Origin: Chiloscyllium plagiosum
Taxonomy: Eukaryota
Direction: 5' to 3'
DNA length: 64,000 nt
NCBI RefSeq assembly: GCF_004010195.1
Contig: NC_057730.1
Coordinates: 19,628,687 to 19,692,686, forward strand
Shown: piece after piece, positions 4,421 to 52,344 of the stretch
Numbering within the stretch: position 1 is the stretch's first letter
Layout: the number at the start of each line of letters is the position of its first letter
The notes under the pieces: generated by a model
What the model saw: the letters and a program-made list of their open reading frames with translations, nothing else
Told to the model about the DNA's origin: nothing
The model's database searches: none
Position numbers and translations under genes: made by a program

Positions 4421-4568
4421 TGAACTGTTGATTGAGAAATTGGGTGGTCCACGACAGTCTATTGGCCAAAGAGTGGTGATTAATATCATGCCTGCATTTA
4501 TTCAACTTTGTCTTCATGTGTTTGAGAAGTTTTTTTTAAGTAATCAATATATTTTTTTTCTGTTTCAG

Positions 4569-5984
4569 GGCAAATCAAAACAAATTGCTAATGTCTTCTA
4601 AAGCCAGTTCTGCAATAAATCATAGTGGGGGTGGTGGTGATGCAGACACAGTACATACATACATGGCTGACAAGCAAGCAAATCCACTGGTCTCTCCACT
4701 AAAAGAAGCCACTGATGGGCCATCCACATCATCCACAGTCAATCCTATTAAAAGCAACAGTGAACTTCAGAAAAATATCGCTGAATGTTGTCATGTTAAC
4801 AGTAGTTCCCATGACCAAAGTCCTGTCCACAAAGTACAAGCAATTCCAGAAATTACTGAAACCCAAGAAAAATTAAGGCCTAATCAGGTCAAAGAGGAGA
4901 TGCAGACTGGTGACCATAAGACCAATATTCATGGTTTTGAAAATAAGCAATCAAGTCAAGATCTAGGCAATAAGGTGCCAGAATTGCAAAATCACAGTAA
5001 TAACCCTCAATCTAATAACAACCAGGAAAGTATTTTGGAAAATGAAAGTCAATCTTGTAAGGAACACTCCTACAGGGGGAGGACTAATCAGGATGATTCT
5101 ACAGGAAGAGATCATTGCAACAAAAAACCTCAGTCTGATAGGGTAACAAATAACGAAGTCAAGAACTGGGTAATTGAGGAAAGTCGTCAACCTGTCAACA
5201 AAAATCAATATCACGAAAACGAACCAAGTCAAGACATACAGCAGAAACCAGAGCAGCAACCAACTAATTTTGTGGAATCTCCCATTGGGGAACATTTGAA
5301 TGAAAATAAGAACAGCATTTCAGAACAGGATAATACTTACAAAGACGTCTGTCTTCTGTCACCAAGGAAAAATATAGCTGGTCCAGAGGAAATGCAGGTT
5401 CAGCTGAAAGAAAACTCAACTTTCGTCGATGTAAAATCTCAATGTAGAGAAAGGACTGGTGCAGAAAAGAATAGAACTTTACAAAAGGATAGTTATAAGG
5501 GTGAGTCTAATTATAGACACAGATCTAGGGAACACAAAGATAGAAGAATGCACCAAAATGCAAGGGAGTTTGAAAAATCAGCAAGTTGCAATTACAGGAA
5601 TTGTTCCCACAAGCAAGATTATTATCAAGACAGTCGCATTGATAAATATAGAAGAAATAATGAGTGTCCAGCTGATAGGCAAAACTACAGTAATTCAAAG
5701 ACAAGCTCATTACTAGCTTATTATCCTTATCAAGATAGGTTTTACAGAGAGAAATATAATTCTGGCTCAAATGGAAGGACTTGGAGCAGTCAATTTGAAT
5801 ATAATGGACTGGAACACAAATATGAGCATAAAAGGAAACGTAATAATAGTGTGAATGATGAAGGTGATCCTGAAAGGAAATGTAAAAAACTGCATCGATC
5901 ATCTGAGGAGAGGAGAATGAAAAAGCATAAAAAATCAAAGAAAAAAAAGACATCAAAAGACAAACACAGAAGTAGAGACCACAG
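4569..5984 (+). CDS. USP42: USP42 large low-complexity exon (C-terminal disordered region)
   Basis: Acceptor tgtttcag|G at 4568/4569 and donor CAG|gtatga at 5984/5985; open frame ending KKHKKSKKKKTSKDKHRSRDH, like the human USP42 lysine-rich region; convergent with CYTH3 as in human. Confidence 0.88.
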
Positions 5985-6342
5985 GTATGATTCGAAGCTT
6001 GTTGTTGTAGCTTTTGTATTCATCACCACCTACATCAGTATAAAACGGTTTTAAATGTTTCAGAAACTTCCTGTGGCTACACTTCTACATTCTTCACAGA
6101 TTATTTTGAAGTCATTTTAATTTTTATTTATTTATTACCTATAATCAAGTTTGCTTGCACAGGTCTGTATTTGTGACATGGCTGGTGGAAGGTTAGAACC
6201 TCTAGGAGCCTCTGCAGTACCAGGGCTTTGCTGCATTTTTGCAAGACACACTGTTGATTCTGTCCATCTGTAAATTGGCTGAGAATAAGGTGATCTCATT
6301 AATGCTCATCCTCAAGATTGTTCATCTTGGCCAATACTAGAA

Positions 6343-11566: not shown

Positions 11567-12422
11567 GGAAAAGTGAGGGCTGCAAGTGCTGGAGATCAGA
11601 GCGGAAAATGTGTTGCTGGAAAGACGCAGCAGGTCAGGCAGCATCCAAGGAGCAGGAGAATTGACGTTTTGGGCATGAGCCCTTCTTCAGGAATGAGGAA
11701 AGTGTGTCCAGCAGGCTAAGATAAAAGGTAGGGAGGAGGGACTCCCACTTCCTCCAAACCAAAGGAATAGGCCCCAGCTATGCCTGCCTTTTCGTAGGAT
11801 ATGTGGAACAGTCCATCTTCCGCAGCTACACTGGCACCACCCCCACCTTTTCCTCCGCTACATCGATGACTGTATCGGCGCTGCCTCGTGCTCGCACGAG
11901 GAGGTTGAACAGTTCATCCACTTTACCAACACCTTCCACCCCGACCTCAAATTCACCTGGACCGTCTCAGACTCCTCCCTCCCCTTCCTAGATCTTTCCA
12001 TTTCTATCTCGGGCGACCGAATCAACATGGACATTTACTACAAACCGACCGACTCCCACAGCTACCTAGACTACACCTCCTCTCGCCCTGCCCCCTGTAA
12101 AAACGCCATCCCATATTCCCAATTCCTTCGTCTCCGCTGCATCTGCTCCCAGGAGGACCGGTTCCAATACCGTACAACCAGATGGCCTCCTTCTTCAAAG
12201 ACCGCAATTTCCCCCCCGACGTGATCGATGATGCCCTCCACCGCATCTCCTCCACTTCCCGCTCCTCCGCCCTTGAGCCCCGCCCCTCCAACGCCACCAG
12301 GACAGAACACCACTGGTCCTCACCTACCACCCCACCAACCTCCATATACAGCGTATCATCTGCCGTCATTTCCACCACCTCCAAACGGACCCCACCACCA
12401 GGGATATATTTCCCTCCCCTCC
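11567..12422 (+). mobile_element. Penelope-like element: inverted terminal repeat (11567-11743) plus RT region running into the gap
   Basis: Translates to GPSYACLFVGYVEQ..FLRYIDD..FHPDLKFT..LPFLDL..DIYYKPTDSHSYLDYTS..KNAIPYSQFLRLR.ICS (PLE RT and thumb); CpG-rich. Confidence 0.9.
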
Positions 12423-13246
12423 NNNNNNNNNNNNNNNNNNNNNNNNNNNNNNNNNNNNNNNNNNNNNNNNNNNNNNNNNNNNNNNNNNNNNNNNNNNNNN
12501 NNNNNNNNNNNNNNNNNNNNNNNNNNNNNNNNNNNNNNNNNNNNNNNNNNNNNNNNNNNNNNNNNNNNNNNNNNNNNNNNNNNNNNNNNNNNNNNNNNNN
12601 NNNNNNNNNNNNNNNNNNNNNNNNNNNNNNNNNNNNNNNNNNNNNNNNNNNNNNNNNNNNNNNNNNNNNNNNNNNNNNNNNNNNNNNNNNNNNNNNNNNN
12701 NNNNNNNNNNNNNNNNNNNNNNNNNNNNNNNNNNNNNNNNNNNNNNNNNNNNNNNNNNNNNNNNNNNNNNNNNNNNNNNNNNNNNNNNNNNNNNNNNNNN
12801 NNNNNNNNNNNNNNNNNNNNNNNNNNNNNNNNNNNNNNNNNNNNNNNNNNNNNNNNNNNNNNNNNNNNNNNNNNNNNNNNNNNNNNNNNNNNNNNNNNNN
12901 NNNNNNNNNNNNNNNNNNNNNNNNNNNNNNNNNNNNNNNNNNNNNNNNNNNNNNNNNNNNNNNNNNNNNNNNNNNNNNNNNNNNNNNNNNNNNNNNNNNN
13001 NNNNNNNNNNNNNNNNNNNNNNNNNNNNNNNNNNNNNNNNNNNNNNNNNNNNNNNNNNNNNNNNNNNNNNNNNNNNNNNNNNNNNNNNNNNNNNNNNNNN
13101 NNNNNNNNNNNNNNNNNNNNNNNNNNNNNNNNNNNNNNNNNNNNNNNNNNNNNNNNNNNNNNNNNNNNNNNNNNNNNNNNNNNNNNNNNNNNNNNNNNNN
13201 NNNNNNNNNNNNNNNNNNNNNNNNNNNNNNNNNNNNNNNNNNNNNN
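12423..13246. other. assembly gap (N run)
   Basis: Continuous Ns. Confidence 1.
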
Positions 13247-35709: not shown

Positions 35710-35998
35710 TAGCGAGTTTGAGAAGATTTATAACTCAAATTGGAGGTTCTGGATGTAGGTTTGCTCACTGAGCTGGAAGGTTCATTTCCAGATGTTTTGT
35801 CACCCTGCTAAGTAACATCTTCAGTTGGCCTCCGGGCGACACCACAGAAAATGACATCACCAACCCAAAGAAACCCAAACACAAATAGAAAGCAGGAATC
35901 CTGAACAGTTCTTCGCCCAGAGGCCCACTGATGTTACCTAGCAGGGCGACGAAACATCTGGAAATGAACCTTCCAGCTCAGTGAGCAAACCTACATTC
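35710..35998. mobile_element. 289-bp palindromic Penelope-derived element with 13-bp TSD
   Basis: ~85-bp inverted arms (tggatgtaggtttgctcactgagctggaaggttc.../...gaaccttccagctcagtgagcaaacctacattc); TSD atgtgaaaattct at 35697-35709 and 35999-36011; arms match the termini of the PLE at 50706-51588. Confidence 0.85.
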
Positions 35999-36265
35999 AT
36001 GTGAAAATTCTCTTTTCAAATGTTTATCTTTTCCTTGAGAAAGTTGAGACTAAACCTGCTTCCAAGACAATCTAGATCACAACTGGGTGTGTAAATAAAA
36101 ATACCTCTTCCACAGATTAGTTCTTAGCCAATTTCCTTAAACTGGGGTGTCCTGGATACCAACCAGCCCTACCAATGAAAAATCCTTTCCCATTTATCTT
36201 ATCAAAGCCACTCATTTTTAAATAGCTCTAAAATTCCCTTTGAAAAGGGTGGAAACAAACACCTA

Positions 36266-37315: not shown

Positions 37316-38009
37316 TTAAGTTATGGAAGCAATTGTGGATTGTTTTAAATACTCAGTCTGCTGTCTCAGCACAGACTGATTTCATAGAATCATACAATGA
37401 TTGCATTACCAGTTCTAACTATGCTCACTTACAGAAAGAGCAACTCATCTAGTCTCCTCCCTGTAACCTGAGAAAAACCTCATCAGGTGAATCTGCCTCT
37501 AGCGTGCTCCCTGGCAATGTATTCCAGATCTTAAGCCAGTCACACCCTTAAAGACTTTTGCCACAATAGTGGACTAGGGATATACAAATATCCCCCCCCC
37601 CCCGGCTCATTAAGGCCCTTTATGGAAGAAGTCGGAGGTAGCCTGAATCAATAATAGAACCATCTTCACAGAAATGAAGGAGGGTAACTGACCTGTTCAG
37701 TGAGACTCAGTAATATCCAATATGGTGCATTTCCTAACTTGTGCTGTTATGGGCGAGCATGTTTAGTTGCTTAAATCTAAACCTGAATAAATTCCAAAAA
37801 CACTATGGTGTAAAAGACCAGGATTACATTTTTAAAAAATCAACACTACCCCTCTCCACATCAACCCTTACAACTATTGCTGCACAAGAACCACTAAAAA
37901 ATACACTTTCCCTCACTACATACACATTACCGACCTGATGTCAGATAGAACCATTAGCTAACCCATATATAAATTCCGACTATAGCCTATAACATGAGCG
38001 AATACTTAC

Positions 38010-38128
38010 CTTTCACCCAAATAATCACCAATGACTGTTTTGTTTAATCCTTCGCCCTTGTATAGAAACTGGGCAATGTCTTCTGGAGTGTTCTGGAGCA
38101 GGTCATTTTCAATTAGAAACTGGATCCC
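38010..38128 (-). CDS. CYTH3: cytohesin-3 Sec7 exon (119 nt)
   Basis: [40 protein letters not shown]. Confidence 0.97.
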
Positions 38129-38664
38129 CTGCAATTAGATAAAACAAAACTCAAAACTCCTGGTGCACAATAACAACTTTTAACCAAGGTTCTGAGGCCT
38201 CTTCCACTCTCCTACTCCCCTCCCTGACTCCCAACCTGTATCACATTTGCAGAGGCACCTTATCTGAGTGACCATTCTGCCACTGAGATGCATGGACAGC
38301 ATGTACAAACAAGCTGGTTACCACACACAGGCACATTCCAGTAGAAATCACCAAATTTTAATCTATGAGTGACCAGAACATCACAAGTCAGGGAGGAGGA
38401 AAATGCAAAAATTACTTTCTCCAAGCTGAAATTATGGAGTACAGGTGAAGCTTCCAGAACATATAGCTAGTGTACACTGTTAATGTCCCTACCTATGGGC
38501 CAGAAGACCCTGGGTTGAAGTCTCACCAGATCGTGATGTATCATAACATGTGAACTGGTCAATATTTCTATCTACAGTTAGCAGACTCAGGGAATGTAAA
38601 ACGAGAACAGGATTGGGTTCTACAATGCCAGCATTCCTACCAACATACCTTGGTACACATATGA

Positions 38665-38821
38665 TAGGAGAAAGTGAGGACTGCAGATGCTGGAGACCAG
38701 AGTTGAAAAGTATGCTGCTGGAAAAACACAGCAGGCCAGGCAGCATCCGAGGAGTAGGAGAATCGATATTTCAGGCATAAGCCCTTCTTCACGAAATGTT
38801 TTTCCAGGACCACACTTTTCA
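38665..38821 (-). mobile_element. short Penelope terminal-repeat insertion with partial inversion and 10-bp TSD
   Basis: Reverse complement of the 41640-41770 tail; TSD acacatatga at 38655-38664 and 38822-38831. Confidence 0.75.
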
Positions 38822-39799
38822 ACACATATGAATAGCACCACTTGGATAAGGGAACACCCATAAGAAACAGAAGTTGATGTTTTCGCTGTTATACCAAGAT
38901 TACAAATGACTTACCAAAGTGGACAAATTCTTTTAAGTACATTTCAATTCAGTATCTTAATCTGCTTAAAAAAATCTTATTGCAGTAACAGTATGCTACC
39001 TCTAAAGTGGACAGCCTAACCAGTAGACTAGGATCATTTTGCATCAGTGGAAAGTTTCAAGTTTAACGTATTTGAATTCTGAAGAGATCCTTTAATCTTC
39101 CTCCATTAAAAACTAATAAAGTGAAATTTCAAAACAGACTTTTTTTAAAAGATCAAATGTAGCTATTGATGGATTTAAAAGTAGGTGGAATCAAGAGACA
39201 GCAGTTTTGATTGCACTGAATACAGCCTTGAAGGTGTGAATAGCCTCTTCCTATTTTTTGGAAAGGAAGCCAATCCCAACACAATGCCAACTTCTGGAAC
39301 CAAAATGCAAAACATTTTTAATGTTTATGAAATTTCATGCAATCCACAATTACACGAGTTTGCTGTCTGTCTGTTGCAAAACATTGTGGCAAAGTTTACT
39401 CAATGGCTAAGACATTAAAAGACAACCAACTCACCAATCTGATTGGATGCTTCATTAAAGTGGGAAAGGAATATTATAGGCACATAAATGTCACAGATCT
39501 GCAAAAAGGTATTAAATGTAATAATAAGCAGAATGGGCTTTCCAGTAGTGGAAGATTAAGAATCAGATGGCACAGATTCAAAAGAAACTGGCAAAAGCAA
39601 CAAGAACTGTTTCTACACAGTAATTGACTATGATTTGAAATGCACAGCCTGAGAGTTGGGTGCAAAGAAGGCCAAGTGAGGCTTGTTTCAAGGAATTGGA
39701 TCATTATCTGAAGAAAATGTGCAAGGCTGGAAGGAATGGTAGTGAAGTTGCTCATTCAGATATTCAGCACAAACATGACACATTAAGGGGTAACACGAT

Positions 39800-39995
39800 G
39801 ACTCGGTGGTTAGCACGGATGCCGCATAGTGCTGGGGATCCAAGTTCAACTCCAGCCTCAGGCAACCGTGCAAACTCTACACAGACAGACAAACCGCATG
39901 GGTTTCCTCTGGGTGCACCAGTTTCCTCCCACAGTCCAAAGATGTGCAGGTTAGGTGGACTGACCATGCTAAATTGCCCATAGTGTCCAGAGATG
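39800..39995 (+). mobile_element. HE1 SINE with short internal inversion
   Basis: HE1 head and core present, but the V-domain segment is reversed (gtgcaaactctacacagacagac). Confidence 0.7.
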
Positions 39996-41316
39996 TGATG
40001 CGATGTGTAGATCGAATGACTTCCTTCAGTGCAGAGACCATTCTACGTAAGAAATGGGCTCCTCTGGCCACATTAGCTCAATTTTAAAATTCTGGATCAA
40101 AGATACCTTAAGGCCCATCCCACCTAGCTCTATAATCCTCTAAGGTATCCAAATGTCTCTAATTCTAGCCTCTTGCACAGTCTCAATTTCCATCACTTCA
40201 CTATCACAACCATCCTGTCCCTTTAGCTCTTGGAATTCCACCCATCCACCTCCCTAACTCTTTCTCATCTTTTATGACACTCCTTAAAATTTACTACTTT
40301 AACTTCTTTTCAGATCTGTGACATTTATGTGCCAACATTTAGTCCCATGGTTTGATATCTCTTAATGTGGCTCAAAGTACAATTATGTCTGATAGAACTC
40401 TCCTACGAAGCATCATTGGAACTAAACCTGTGTAATGGCCAGCATTAAATACAAGTTCTTTTTAATCATCATTTGTCACAAGTCAATATATGGAAGTAAT
40501 ATCTTATAATAGTAGGAAGAAAAACAATATTAAATAGATCACCAGGAAGAATAACATAAGTTACAAAATTAGATTCATGTAAGGCACAGCTAGAGGTTGC
40601 AAGTGAAAAGCAGTAAGATTGGTATTCTGCAAGAACAGCTTTAAATCAGCTAAAGGTCCCACATAGTTCTAAGTCCACCTTGCAAAACTACTCATTTGCC
40701 CTATTTATGTAAAGTACAAATTTTCCATCTCAGGTTAGAAGACCTGCAGTGCTCATGCCCATTCCTCTTCTATTTCCCAAAGTACTGCAGTCAGCAAAGA
40801 GAGGACAGCATTCCAATGTGTTGGACTTCGAAAGAATTTTTATGCTTTAATTACACTCCTGCCAGGGAATTCTCTACATTTAAAATTGCCTTGGCTTGCT
40901 AAATAACTATCCTCTGGCTAAGCAACACATCTGTAAAATATTTTGCTGAAATCTTAGAGAGTATAGTTACCAGATTAGGACAAAGTGCATTCCTTCCAAT
41001 GCTTGGAAGTTATTTATTCTCATGGTTTTCCTTCTCTTCATCCTCAGCAAGCAGCATCAATCCATTCTTGTTAAATACACTCAACATAGTATATCAGCTT
41101 ATCTAACCACTTCAAGGACTGATAAAAGAAACAAAATAAACAAACTATCCAGCATCAACTGGGACTTAGAGAGTGACAACAGGTCACAGTTCTGTCAATT
41201 CTGCAAGACCCGCTTATTAACTCCCTACTTGTGCCATAATTGGGAGAGCTGACTCACAAACTAGTTAGGAAACATAAGGTATGATTCTGTGGGAATGACT
41301 ATGCCCCAGACAACAT

Positions 41317-41770
41317 TGGACTCATCCACCGCCAAACCACAACAACGCGACGGTCGGAGGAGGAGCGTCTTATCTTCCGACTGGGAACCCTCCAACCACA
41401 GGGGATGAACTTGGACTTCACCAGTTTCTTCATCCCCCCTCCCCCCACCTTGTCTCAGCCGAATCCCTCCAGCCCGGCACCGCCTTCCTGACCTGCAGTC
41501 TTCTTCTTGACCTCTCCGCCTCCATCCTACTCCGACCTATCACCCTCACCTTGACCTCTTTCCACCTATCACATTTCCAACGCCCCTCCTCCAAGTCCCT
41601 CCTCCCTACCTTTTATCTTCTCCTGCTGAACACTCTCTGCTCATTCCTGAAGAAGGGCCTGTGCCCGAAACGTCGAATCTCCTGTTCCCTGGATGCTGCC
41701 TGACCTGCTGTGCTGTTCCAGCAATAAAGTTTCAACTTTGATCTCCAGCATCTGCAGACCTCACTTTCTC
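41317..41770 (+). mobile_element. young 5'-truncated Penelope-like element (GIY-YIG C-terminus plus terminal repeat)
   Basis: EEERLIFRLGTLQPQGMNLDF motif; TSD ccagacaacat at 41306-41316 and 41771-41781; CpGs intact. Confidence 0.9.
41643..41678 (+). ncRNA. minimal type I hammerhead ribozyme motif in a PLE terminal repeat
   Basis: ATTC-CTGAAGA-A-GGGC-ctgt-GCCC-GAAA-CGTC-GAAT: stem I ATTC/GAAT, core CUGANGA and GAAA, stem II GGGC/GCCC, NUH site GUC. Confidence 0.75.
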
Positions 41771-41999
41771 CCAGACAACATCACCCTGCCTTTATACTAC
41801 ACCGTACTGCCAGTTCAGAAAGGAGGGAGCTACCATACATGTCTTCAACATAAACTCTACAAGTCATGAAATCTCATGGCATCAGGTCAAACACAGGTAA
41901 GCAAACTGCCTGTTGATCATCTATAGACCTCACTCTTGGCTGATGATCAGTTCTCCTGCATGTTGAATACCACCCTGAAGCAGCACTGAGAAAGGTAAA

Positions 42000-44580
42000 G
42001 ACATAGAATTAACTCTGAATGGGGACAAGAAGTAACTCTGTATCACCATTACTGACCAAATTGGCTGAGATCTAAACGACATAATTCAAGGCTGGGTCAG
42101 CAGGTGGTGACAGACTGAACAAGGGTAAAGCAATCTTGACCTCATCCTCACCAATCTTCCTACAGCAAATGTATCTGGCCATGGCAGTATTAGTGGGAGT
42201 GACAGTGATGTAGTCCTTGTGGAGACCAAGTCCCATCCTCACATTCAGGATTCTCTCCATCGTGTTCTGTTACACCTCCACCATGCACAATGAGACATTT
42301 CAATCAGGTCTAGCAACTCAAGACTGGACATCCATGAAGTGCCAAGGAGCATCAGAGCAGAATTATATTCGAGCACAATCATGGTCTGCAAATCCCCCAC
42401 TCTAACTTTACCACCAAGCCAGAGATCAACCCTGGTTCATTGAAAAGATCAAAAAGGCAAGCCTGGAGCAGCACTAAACAACCCTGAAAATGAGGTGTCA
42501 ACCTGGAGAAGCTACAACACAAGATTACTTGCATGATAAGCAGTTTGTGACAAACGGGGCTAAGCGATACCACAAGCAACTGATCAGAATAAAGCTCTGC
42601 AGTCTTACCACATCTAGTAATGAATGGTGATGGCCTATTAAACAACTTACCCGAGGAGGTGGTTCCACAAATATCCCCATCTTCAATGATAGAGAGCCCA
42701 GCACATCAGTGCAAAAGATAAGGGAGAAGTATTTGACAGCATCTTCAGCCATAACTGCTGAATAAATGATCCATCTTGGCCTCCTTTTGAGATCACGAGT
42801 AACATGGATTCCAGTCAATTCAATGCACTCCACACAACATTAAGGAATGCTTGAAAGCAGTGGAAGCTGCAAAGGCTATGGGCCCTTAAACATTCAGCCA
42901 ATAGTACTGAAGTGTGCTCCAGACCTTGCCACACCCCTTGCCAAGTTGTTCCAGTACAGTCATAATGCTGCCAACTACTGACGATATGGAAAATTACACA
43001 GGTTTGTCCTGTGTAATTTCAAGTCAAGTCCAAATCAGCCAACTACTGCCTCAGTATACTCTTGACCAAAGTGATGAAAAATGTCACTGACACTGCAATC
43101 AAACAACACTTAAATGACTTACTCAATGATATTGTGCGATCAAACAATACTTAATGACCTGCTTAATGATGTTCAGTTTGGATTCTGCCAGGCTCACTCA
43201 GCTCCTGATCCATCCCTATGCAGAAGAAATGAATTCGGAAGTGGGGGGGGAGAGAAGTAGAAGAGAAGAGAGAAGGGAACGTTACTGTCCTCCACGTTAA
43301 CCTAGCATCTAACCAAGTTTGGCACTGAAGAGCCCTGGCAAAACCTGGAATTAACAGGAAATGTCAGAGGGCAGGAACTATCCACTGTTTGGAGTCATTT
43401 CAAGCACAAAGCTAGATAGCTGTGGTTGTTGGAGATCAATCATCTCAGCCATGCAACATTAGTGCAGGAGTTCCTCAGGGTATAGTCTGATGCCCATCTT
43501 CAGCTGCTTCATCAATTGCCTTCCCCGATTACAAGGTCAGGAGCTTGTTTTTTTAACATTCATGGAACGTAGGCATTGCTGGCTTGGCTAGCATTTATTG
43601 CCCATCCTAGTGGTTCTTGAGAAGGTGGTAGGGGAGCTGTATTCTTAAACCACTACAATCCAGTACACTCATAATGCAGTTATGGAGTTAGTTCCAGGAT
43701 TTTGACCCAGCAACACAAAGGACGGATATTAACTGATATTAGCGGATAACGCCCATTAACAACTTCCCAGTAATCAGTGTCCATATGTATCAAGATCTGA
43801 ACAAATATCCAGGCCAAGGCTGAAATGTACAATCGGATTTCCTAAATGCGAAGCTGTGACCACCTCCAACAAGAATGAATCTAATCATCTCCCCATGACA
43901 TTCAGCAGCATTACCAACAATGAATTTCCACTACCTACAACACCCCCCCCCACCCCACCAAAACAAATTATTAACATCATGGGGGTTACCACTGACCATT
44001 AAACTAAATTGGACGGGGCACAATAGTGTGGCTACAACAGCAGGTGGATCCTAGGAATTCTGCATCAATCAACTCATCTGATTCTCAAAGCCTATCTATA
44101 AGGCACATGTCAGGACTGTGATGAAATACTGCTGCAACAAATTTTTAAAAACTTAACACCACCTGGATCAAAGCAGCTCATATGAATGGCAGCCCATCTG
44201 ACACCTTCAACATTTACTCCACCACCACGCAATGACAGCGCGTACCATCAATAAACTGCACTGCAGCAACTCATTCAGGTTCCTTTGAAGGCTCCTTCCA
44301 AATCCACCTCCTTTACCGCCTGTAAGGACAAGAGCAGAAGATAGATGGGATCACCACCACCTGTAAGTGTTCCTCCAAGCCATTTGCCATCCTGACTAGG
44401 AACTATAGCACAGTTGATTTGTTGTCGTATGGTTCAGATCACGAAACATCTTTCCTCACAGCACTGCAGGAATCTCTACCATGTAGATAGCTCAAAACAT
44501 CAGCTCACAAATATTCAAGGGCAATTAGACTTGGGCAATAAATGCACAGCTTCGTCAGCAACATCCACATCTTATTTATG
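42000..44580 (+). mobile_element. decayed CR1/L2-group LINE ORF2 with 3' end; an inverted 3' piece is nested at ~43545-43720
   Basis: LDLILTN, APDLATPLAKLFQYS, QFGFCQAHSAPD, AGVPQG and YKAHVRTVM motifs; tail gggcaataaatgc. Confidence 0.75.
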
Positions 44581-45127: not shown

Positions 45128-45578
45128 TGCTGAGGGATAACCCTGCAGAGGTTTATAAAATCATAAGAAATACGGATAGGGTAACTAGAGGGCACAGCTT
45201 GAAGGTGAGAGGAGAAAGATTTAAAAGGGACCTAAGGGGTAACTTTTTCATGAAGACAGTGATGTGTGTATGGAATGAGCTGCCAGAAGATTCTTCCTGC
45301 TCCTCAGATGGTGCCTGACCTGTTGTGCTTTTCCAGCACCACTCTAATCTAGACTATGATTTCTAGCATCTGCAGTCCTCACTTTTGTCCAGAAGTGGTG
45401 GTAGCGGCTAGTATAATTACAACATTTGAAAGACATCTGGATGGGTTTATGAGTAGGAAGGATTTAGAAGGATATGGGCCAAATGCTGGCAAATGGGACT
45501 AAATTAATTTAGAATATCTGGTCAGCAAGGACGAGTTGGACCGAATAATCTATTTCCATGCTGTACATCTCTATGACG
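45128..45578 (+). mobile_element. CR1/HER1 3' end
   Basis: TRGHSLKVRGERFKRDLRGNFF..WNELPE; tail catctctatgac. Confidence 0.85.
45290..45388 (+). mobile_element. 99-bp Penelope terminal fragment nested in the CR1
   Basis: TSD ccagaag at 45283-45289 and 45389-45395; homologous to 41676-41770. Confidence 0.8.
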
Positions 45579-45618
45579 CGATAATAATCTAATGAAACAG
45601 AATAAAAAAATTAATTAC

Positions 45619-45685
45619 CTTCTTGGGATCCATGTTGAATTTCTTTCTCCCCATAGCCATTTGTTTATTCCTCTGAGTTGTTTTA
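45619..45685 (-). CDS. CYTH3: cytohesin-3 exon (67 nt)
   Basis: [22 protein letters not shown]. Confidence 0.96.
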
Positions 45686-46060
45686 CTGCAAGAATCAAAA
45701 GAGGAATTTAAAAAAAAAGTGAGGAATTACAAGTTTTTAACCCTTTACTATTGAGATTGCAGCACTGCAACTTGATTGTTCTCCCATCTAATAAACACAG
45801 GGACATGAATCCCATTAAGAATATAAGAAATAGGATTTAGCCTTTTGAGCCCACTTCACTATTCAATAAGATTTTGCTGATTTTCTACCTTACGTTTATC
45901 CTCATTGTCCTCGATTTCATTAGCATCTGGATATTTATTGTTCTCTGTCTTGAATATATTCAATGGCTCCAACAGTTATTGGTAATGTCCACAGTCAATC
46001 TTGCAGTGATTTAATCTGGACTGGAATCACATGACAGAGGCTGCAAAGGTGAAGTTAATG

Positions 46061-50705: not shown

Positions 50706-51588
50706 GTGAGATTTGTAGCTCAGGTTGATGTTATGGATGTAGGTTTGCTCACTGAGCTTAAGGTTCGTTTTCAGATGTTACATCACCATACTCGGTAACA
50801 ACATCAGTGTGCCTCCGGATGAAGCACTGTGACATGGCCAGCTTTCTATTCGTGCATTTAGGTTTCTTCGGTCAGTGTTGTCATTTCCTGTGGTGATGCC
50901 AATGCCTGTTCATTTTCTTCGGGGGTGGTAAATGGAATCCAAGCGACAAACCCAAACAAGCAGACAAAACACGTCCAGAAACCCTAGCCACTCTCCCCTA
51001 TATCAAAGATATCTTGGAAATGACTGCCAGATTACTCAAACCCCTTGGCATTATGGTAGCCCACAAATCCACCAACACACTAAAACAGCAGCTAATGAAC
51101 TTGAAAGACCCTATACAGACAACAAGCAAAACTAATGTCATTTACAAAATACTTTACAGGAACTGTAACAAACACTACATTGGACAAACAGGCAGAAAAC
51201 TAGCCACCAGGATACATGAACATCAACTAGCCACAAAAATACATGACCCACTCTCACTAATATCTTTACATACAGAGGAGGAAGGACACCACTTCAACTG
51301 GGACAACACATCCTAGGACAAGCCAACCAGAGACATGCACGAGAATTCCTAGAAGTATGGCATTTCAACCAGAACTCTAACAACAAACACGGTGACTTGG
51401 ATCCCATTTACCACCCCCTGAGAAAAATAACAGGAAATGGCATCACCAATCCAAGAAAACCGAAACACAAATAGAAAAAGTGGGCCATGCCACCAGTGCT
51501 TCATCTGGAGGATCACTGATGTCACCCAGTTTGGTGACAAACCATCTGAAAACAAACCTTCCAGGCCAGCAAGCAAACCTACATCCAG
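50706..51588 (+). mobile_element. Penelope-like element: inverted terminal repeat plus GIY-YIG endonuclease and direct terminal repeat
   Basis: NVIYKILYRNCNKHYIGQTGRKLATRIHEHQLA (GIY-YIG); ends are inverted copies of each other. Confidence 0.88.
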
Positions 51589-52344
51589 AGTTTAAACAAG
51601 TGTAAAAAAAAAATATGGACCTACAAAACATGGCAAAAATTCAAGAAACTGGCAGCTTAATCCCCTTCTCAGAACAACGACGAATGGTCAGTAAACGAAG
51701 CTTCAACAGCAACATGGATATAAGAGACAATGCGGAAATAACAACATGAGTCTAGAATTCTCAGTATTAAGTTGGAGGATTGTAGTTGCCATTGCATATT
51801 TTGCAAGAACATAGAAAAAACCATACAGGATTTACAAATGCTATATATAGCAGACAAAAAAAAATTGTTGCTGCCACTTCAAATACAATGTAATCTTCTA
51901 CAAATATGCTTCTAAATGTGTTGCCACAGAGACAGAGCGTAAGCATACTTTAAACTATAGAGGGCTTTTAAGATGTGAATTTGTTCAAAGTTTAGGTCAA
52001 TGTCAATGCAGATGCACAGAAATTCAAATGGATCAAAGAGAAGATTAGAATCTGTCTCACCAGGTCCTTGTGAAATTCCCAGTGGTCTCCTTTTCCTAAT
52101 GGTAGCCTATGGCAGCATGCATACTAGCACACTCTGGACAAGTTCATTAATTTTAAACCATCGCCCAGCTCACAGCAGGGTTTTGCATTAATGCAGAGAT
52201 CAAATCAAGCTTAAAAATCAATACACCCAAATGCAATTTGACCTTGATGTAAATGGAGTCCATGGTAATAAATGGAAGCCACACAACATGCAACGAGTAT
52301 ACAAAAAAGGACGTACAAGATATTAGGCCTTAATAAAGCAGTGA

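Follow-up and report, generated by a model that had tools for sequence, protein, structure and literature searches.

Minimal hammerhead ribozymes in the pLTRs of metazoan Penelope-like elements (PLEs) were described in 2014 by Cervera and De la Pena (PMC4209133), who found single minimal motifs to be inactive and dimers to cleave weakly. By our own count of the 56 rows of Fig. S3 of that paper, the same eight letters, CUGAAGAA, occur in 18 and an extra base after A9 in 54, and none of the rows comes from a cartilaginous fish. For the Poseidon element of Anolis carolinensis (PAc; Frangieh et al., 2024, PMC11167929), the motif cleaves only together with protein and in a C3- and G8-dependent manner, is dispensable for insertion in vitro and leaves no RNA-seq ends at its site. 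Type I hammerheads from PLE pLTRs are also found in non-LTR retrozymes, which are reported from the one chondrichthyan sampled, and eight of nine Xenopus dimers were without cleavage in that work (bioRxiv 10.64898/2026.07.22.740005). In our literature search, outside which most subscription papers fall, nothing was found on hammerheads of the shark family described below, and the supplement of the 2026 preprint may hold it.

The window, that is, the whole 64-kb stretch of Chiloscyllium plagiosum DNA analysed here, carries on its plus strand at 41643-41678 a 36-nt motif which, judged by its sequence, is a genuine and undamaged minimal hammerhead of the kind known from Penelope-like elements, with every sequence feature of the metazoan PLE class. 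Stem I is made of four Watson-Crick pairs (41643-41646 with 41675-41678); the core CTGAAGA (41647-41653) is followed by an extra A after A9 (41654), by stem II, 4 bp around a 4-nt loop (41655-41658 with 41663-41666, the G10.1-C11.1 pair being G41655-C41666), by GAAA (41667-41670), and by the GTC triplet (41672-41674), after which, at 41674/41675, the cut is predicted. The helix III loop is absent, and the palindromic 15.2-16.2 centre lies within the self-complementary ACGT at 41670-41673, with which helix III would be possible only between two copies. All core positions are intact and the consensus of Fig. S3 of PMC4209133 is matched. The earlier note had named these parts one by one and had called the whole a minimal type I hammerhead with a palindromic helix III; the sequence confirms all of the former, and both the layout and the class consensus agree with the latter. 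Its further remark that an extra nucleotide after A9 is tolerated in some hammerheads needs rewording: the base is present, but in this class it is a conserved state and not an oddity (PMC4209133). In a viroid hammerhead, an extra A after A9 slightly slows cleavage (PMC3705267).

What this motif shares with the minimal hammerheads of metazoan PLEs is the type I frame, CUGANGA with one extra base, G10.1-C11.1, GAAA, the two-base palindromic centre, an NUH site, a short stem I and a U/C-rich 5' flank, along with the occurrence of a single motif in a 5'-truncated copy and of very many dispersed copies. It differs in that its 4-bp stem II stands at the short end for the class, and in that many copies of the shark family start at the first base of the motif, a feature absent from the description in the accessible part of PMC4209133. 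The hammerhead model search of the window that had been proposed succeeded in one form and failed in another: a type I descriptor of our own design found a single site in the 64 kb on both strands, namely 41643-41678, with no second intact hammerhead motif, whereas an Rfam search gave no hammerhead match, either at the gathering threshold or with E up to 10. Applied to dinucleotide shuffles of the whole window, this descriptor found matches in 5 of 500.

The motif is carried by a 5'-truncated PLE of 455 bp on the plus strand (41317-41771), a span in which summed contig depth is orders of magnitude higher than around it. The family 3' end was placed at 41771; behind it, all four DNA runs and three RNA runs have an accumulation of loose, AT-rich flanks that differ from one another. 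Beginning at its truncated side, the copy holds the last ~37 codons of the ORF (41318-41428), corresponding by tblastn against the C-termini of RT/GIY-YIG proteins to the C-terminus of the GIY-YIG endonuclease region; a pyrimidine-rich untranslated part (41429-41642), common from 41594 on to a sibling copy at 11570-11743; the hammerhead; the 3' part of the pLTR (41679-41736), common to four copies in the window; and a putative 35-bp 'tail' (41737-41771), suggested by the sibling at 38667-38823, whose inverted arm ends 35 bp before the family 3' end. Tails of 30-40 bp have been described in PLEs (PMC8557442, PMC3846280). The motif is thereby placed in the pLTR 215 nt after the last ORF codons and 93 nt before the family 3' end. 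We also considered as element ends the loose ends before 41662 and behind 41723/41724, and rejected them, since their consensus is family sequence of other subfamilies.

Residues 413-469 of a Rhincodon protein (P0004), which has RVT_1 and GIY-YIG domain matches, align with 60% identity and E 1e-20 in a tblastn search against a 600-bp stretch. Of the 120 proteins related to the window's RT fragment, 29 match 41250-41850 as well, mostly at the C-terminal peptide. The RT and GIY-YIG of the family are attributed by homology only, through this peptide and through a sibling joined to RT. The closest named relatives are Chiloscyllium, Rhincodon and Stegostoma proteins. Of the relatives fetched that have a YIG-type motif, 22 of 25 show the CX2-5CxxC linker, a mark of Neptune and Nematis (PMC8557442); P0002, which is the closest relative, and P0012 lack this pattern there. 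Assignment to the Neptune/Nematis type is tentative, with the linker of the relatives as its basis, the linker region being missing from the copy at 41317-41771. Further likenesses to the Neptune clade are the order of RT, Zn-finger-like linker and GIY-YIG in relatives, the 5' truncation, the inverted arm without tail and the duplications of 8-10 bp; the linker does not separate Neptune from Nematis, however, and the studied copy holds the last ORF codons only. Direct searches were less productive: Pfam returned nothing useful for the ORF-end peptide, a word search with the same peptide gave three candidates, none of them significant, and phmmer with representative relatives gave 10 matches. 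A 20-nt pattern of the pLTR met 17 loci in metagenome contigs, which we set aside as chance, none aligning beyond 26 nt, and was absent from the viral contigs searched.

Some minor features of the element deserve mention here. An ATG 15 nt past the motif opens a frame (41693-41771) that stays open to the 3' end of the element; an ORF start may thus be included in the pLTR, and the frame had no match among the fetched proteins. The predicted Stegostoma tigrinum protein P0012 runs at residues 509-522 past the ORF end into sequence resembling the hammerhead region, an indication that this layout recurs in a related shark. In other subfamilies, an AG at 41620-41621 follows a long pyrimidine tract (41600-41622) in a splice-acceptor-like manner; the studied copy has CT.

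The insertion is flanked by an exact target-site duplication. Its left copy measures 10 bp (41307-41316), or 12 bp when two C shared with the element end are counted (41305-41316, an exact match to 41770-41781), and its right copy occupies 41772-41781; among 3000 random site pairs, a duplication of at least 10 bp arose in 4 and one of at least 12 bp in 1. The element keeps 16 CpGs, with an observed/expected ratio of 0.56 compared to 0.24 for the window, and all three CpGs of the motif, at 41666, 41671 and 41674, are among them. Claims made earlier that this is a Penelope element of a shark family with an intact target duplication and CpGs hold good on these results: the ORF end, the pLTR and the exact 10-12-bp duplication are in place, the CpGs include the three of the motif, and the closest named relatives belong to the sharks listed above. 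The additional claim of recent activity stands in part. The copy is young in the sense of being little decayed, whereas neither current activity nor polymorphism is supported: no empty-site joint for the insertion occurred among the joints listed (15 of 46), and near-identical sequence is found in three other organisms. Runs of those three organisms contain 54-61% of the sampled words of the element and, in one of them, an exact 84-nt piece; the subfamily is therefore common to several species. Contigs without differences appear to span the right junction (X1 and X5) and the left one (X1 and X9), but as their element side comprises less than 31 letters they are no more than suggestive of the presence of the insertion in other samples.

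The host is a cytohesin intron. One minus-strand cytohesin Sec7 exon, read as a frame at 38009-38134 (Pfam Sec7, E 4e-11), lies downstream of the intron, its best PDB match being cytohesin-3 with E 3e-20 and other matches reaching 1e-19. The upstream exon, a minus-strand frame at 45592-45726 with no Pfam match on its own, was found by short cytohesin motifs. Since the plus-strand element sits between these two minus-strand exons, the motif is antisense to the cytohesin pre-mRNA, as the earlier note had it with CYTH3 as the gene. A single antisense copy would therefore not cut that pre-mRNA. Depth is also raised at 41220-41290 and 41866-41930, and joints skip from 41258/41263 to 41865; the element seems to have been inserted into an older repeat (41220-41316 and 41782-43500), the downstream part of which, to 43500, resembles a decayed LINE. 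In X22, of which ~2 in 100 were read, depth is almost nil past 41778; X23 gave no reads here, and no RNA run was listed as containing the locus.

The family is clearly hugely abundant. Relative to unique flank, summed contig depth is ~10^5-10^6 times higher at the motif (0.5-1.1 million) and ~0.1 million times higher at the ORF end, a ratio that is not to be taken as a copy number. Among the variants listed (40 of 103), which come from reads passed by a likeness filter that favours conserved ones, four fall in the motif: 41651 A>T at N7 (152 of 709 reads), 41659 C>T (606 of 826), 41661 G>A (410 of 833) and 41677 A>T (890 of 1188). Of these, three affect N7 or loop II, which together supply the six positions free of constraint (P about 0.01). 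Such a leaning of the variation towards unconstrained positions suggests that the structure was kept, by selection, in the active lineage. No compensatory pair or stem covariation was seen among the variants listed (40 of 103) together with the four copies in the window.

We consider it likely that the motif is the pLTR hammerhead of a Penelope-like retrotransposon, present here as a passenger in a 5'-truncated insertion and probably inert, which in the parent element would act as a slow, dimer- or protein-assisted trimmer of tandem RNA. The copy continues without interruption through the predicted cut site and, on the upstream side of the motif, extends for 326 nt, as far as the ORF end; because it spans the cut site, its template was probably uncut, or re-joined, when copied. 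An RNA read from the ORF into the downstream pLTR, uncut or re-joined, probably served as this template, and target-primed reverse transcription of such read-through RNA would have left the truncated insertion. In the parent element, the motif would cleave slowly, and only as an ACGT dimer or with the help of the element's protein, and such cleavage would trim tandem read-through RNA. Dimer cleavage of hammerheads was reportedly treated by Lunse et al. in RNA Biol, as summarised in PMC6765202. At the present locus, with a single copy on the wrong strand and no intact partner nearby, cleavage would leave the cytohesin pre-mRNA untouched. The context altogether argues against cleavage here, considering that no second intact motif is at hand in the window, that the template appears to have been uncut, and that the published monomers were inactive.

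Such a scenario resembles that of the Anolis Poseidon element (PMC11167929), with which the shark family shares a hammerhead in the pLTR, a tail between two reverse-transcription starts, an uncut RNA template and AT-rich targets, the consensus of the shark loose ends behind 41771 beginning with TAAT in most runs. The two differ in that the relatives of the shark family have the CX2-5CxxC linker of the Neptune/Nematis type, and in that the shark family is known from sequence. Compared with the non-LTR retrozymes, which are tandem arrays, the shark copy is single and truncated and retains an ORF remnant. A retrozyme reading was rejected on this account: it needs at least two tandem units with a complete hammerhead, and the window has one intact motif. 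A reading as an exapted ribozyme was likewise rejected, there being no tandem partner and no sign of locus-specific conservation.

The structure of the copy population adds a further aspect. Unlike flanks pile up immediately before 41643, the first base of stem I, in 161 reads of X22, 125 contigs of X5 and 38 of X13, the agreement among flanks being 0.32-0.42. Joints that return to, or invert at, 41642-41644 occur as well. In all four joints into 41643 or 41644 among the joints listed, the last inserted letter is G, and the flank consensus before 41643 ends with G in X5 and X13 and with T in X22. The sibling at 38667-38823 likewise starts at the 5' edge of the motif. Among the ends listed, no pile of loose ends was found at 41675, the cut site. 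Penelope itself is known to start transcription in its pLTR (PMC8557442); on pLTR transcription starts of the shark family our search, with most subscription papers outside it, found nothing. Let us assume that 41643 is the capped start of the element RNA, with the hammerhead as the front of the transcript. Then the commonest insertions would be ~130-bp copies of the uncut front, and the 455-bp copy studied here would be a rarer read-through product. We see this proposal as evenly poised between right and wrong. Should copies indeed start at the first base of the motif and only seldom at the cut site, uncut RNA would be shown by the genome itself to be the template in vivo, and the transcription start would be placed as well. 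An uncut template has already been found in vitro for the Anolis element; an abundant family such as this one would record the ends of its template RNA in the genome.

The many copies that begin at 41643, and not at the cut site, can also be read in favour of a job other than cleavage, for which the motif would be kept as a mark of the RNA start or as a structure bound by the element's protein, cleavage itself being negligible. The third pair of stem I points in the same direction, as T at 41677, which breaks it, is in the majority in five of the six runs with coverage (29% in X19), and so do the Naiad PLEs, which spread without the canonical motif (PMC8557442). Preservation of the whole catalytic core and the GUC across animal PLEs (PMC4209133) speaks against such a role, as does the C3/G8 dependence of the protein-assisted cleavage in Anolis, and we regard a non-cleavage job as rather unlikely.

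Another reading would make the copy at 41643-41678 an active ribozyme with a role at this locus, cutting antisense RNA in the cytohesin intron with the help of other family RNA. The core, the GUC and three CpGs are intact, ACGT is common to the family, and the four pairs of stem I, better than the family majority, would favour folding. Family RNA is abundant in both orientations in the RNA runs and may supply a partner in trans. Folded alone, the 36-mer adopts the hammerhead frame as its minimum-energy structure at -7.1 kcal/mol, and stem II, with a pair probability of ~1.0 in the bare 36-mer, is stable in every context folded. However, stem I scarcely forms in natural context, its pair probability dropping from 0.3-0.5 in the bare 36-mer to ~0.1 when 71 nt are folded and 0.01 when 172 nt are, and the 71-nt stretch around the motif folds no better than shuffles of it (z +1.44). 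A two-copy hammerhead fold reaches -13.1 kcal/mol compared with -14.2 for two monomers (-7.1 each), and the best two-copy fold, at -18.3 kcal/mol, is not a hammerhead. The lack of an intact partner in the window weighs against the locus role too, and intactness is what one expects of a little-decayed copy among very many. RNA run X22, with 2736 reads in both orientations, shows no pile of read ends in the stretch, including the cut site; X22 is a weak test for cleaved ends because it is a fragment library of which ~2 in 100 were read. Taken together, we consider a locus role very improbable. Joints from 41676 to 41643 and from 41677 to 41643, in contigs of X5 and X19, repeat the hammerhead alone from head to tail; these repeats are a natural dimer arrangement elsewhere in these genomes.

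That the motif is a chance match within a repeat, a notion to which the missing Rfam match, the unexceptional folding and the descriptor matches in shuffles lend some colour, is barely credible and largely refuted by the match to the class consensus and by a position exactly as the class describes, past the end of the ORF within a PLE pLTR. Also against chance stands another PLE family of the window, unrelated to this one, whose motif is decayed but built on the same plan.

Returning to the motif as the pLTR hammerhead of a PLE passenger, the single copy is of little consequence, PLE end-repeat hammerheads having been known since 2014 and the family being very large. Its perfect core and four-pair stem I nevertheless make it a convenient construct for cleavage assays.

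Three further copies of the family lie within the window besides 41317-41771, and they illustrate how the motif is lost. The minus-strand sibling at 38667-38823, which shares the intron with the studied copy but has the sense orientation of the cytohesin RNA, starts behind a short inverted arm that is without the last 35 bp of the family 3' end; it has a target duplication of ~10 bp with one gap, and its core is broken at C3, C11.1 and helix III. A second sibling (11567-12422) joins a minus-strand pLTR to an inverted, plus-strand RT fragment with 88% identity to a Chiloscyllium punctatum protein; in its pLTR part (11567-11743), G12 and G1.1 are changed to A. The third, at 45295-45393 on the plus strand, is an old fragment without the hammerhead. 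In the two siblings with broken cores the changes are mostly of CpG type, and with three CpGs no more than 10 nt from the core, G12 itself belonging to one, quick loss of the motif by CpG decay is likely. An assembly gap of 824 N (12423-13246) interrupts the RT fragment of the second sibling.

Other observations concern the surroundings. The stretches 38707-38795 and 41644-41732 belong to two copies in facing orientation, separated by 2.8 kb within a single cytohesin intron; over 89 nt they are 80% complementary, and they could pair in the pre-mRNA. Also in this intron, 39764-40042 is a SINE-like repeat that we take to resemble shark HE1. Further away, 4540-6054 holds a long, charged, exon-like frame with no Pfam match, resembling USP42. 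The second, unrelated PLE family, at 50734-51590 and 35748-35999, has direct and inverted end repeats with a decayed hammerhead-like motif in each, and its GIY-YIG frame (50897-51313) is without the Cys linker and so Poseidon-like.
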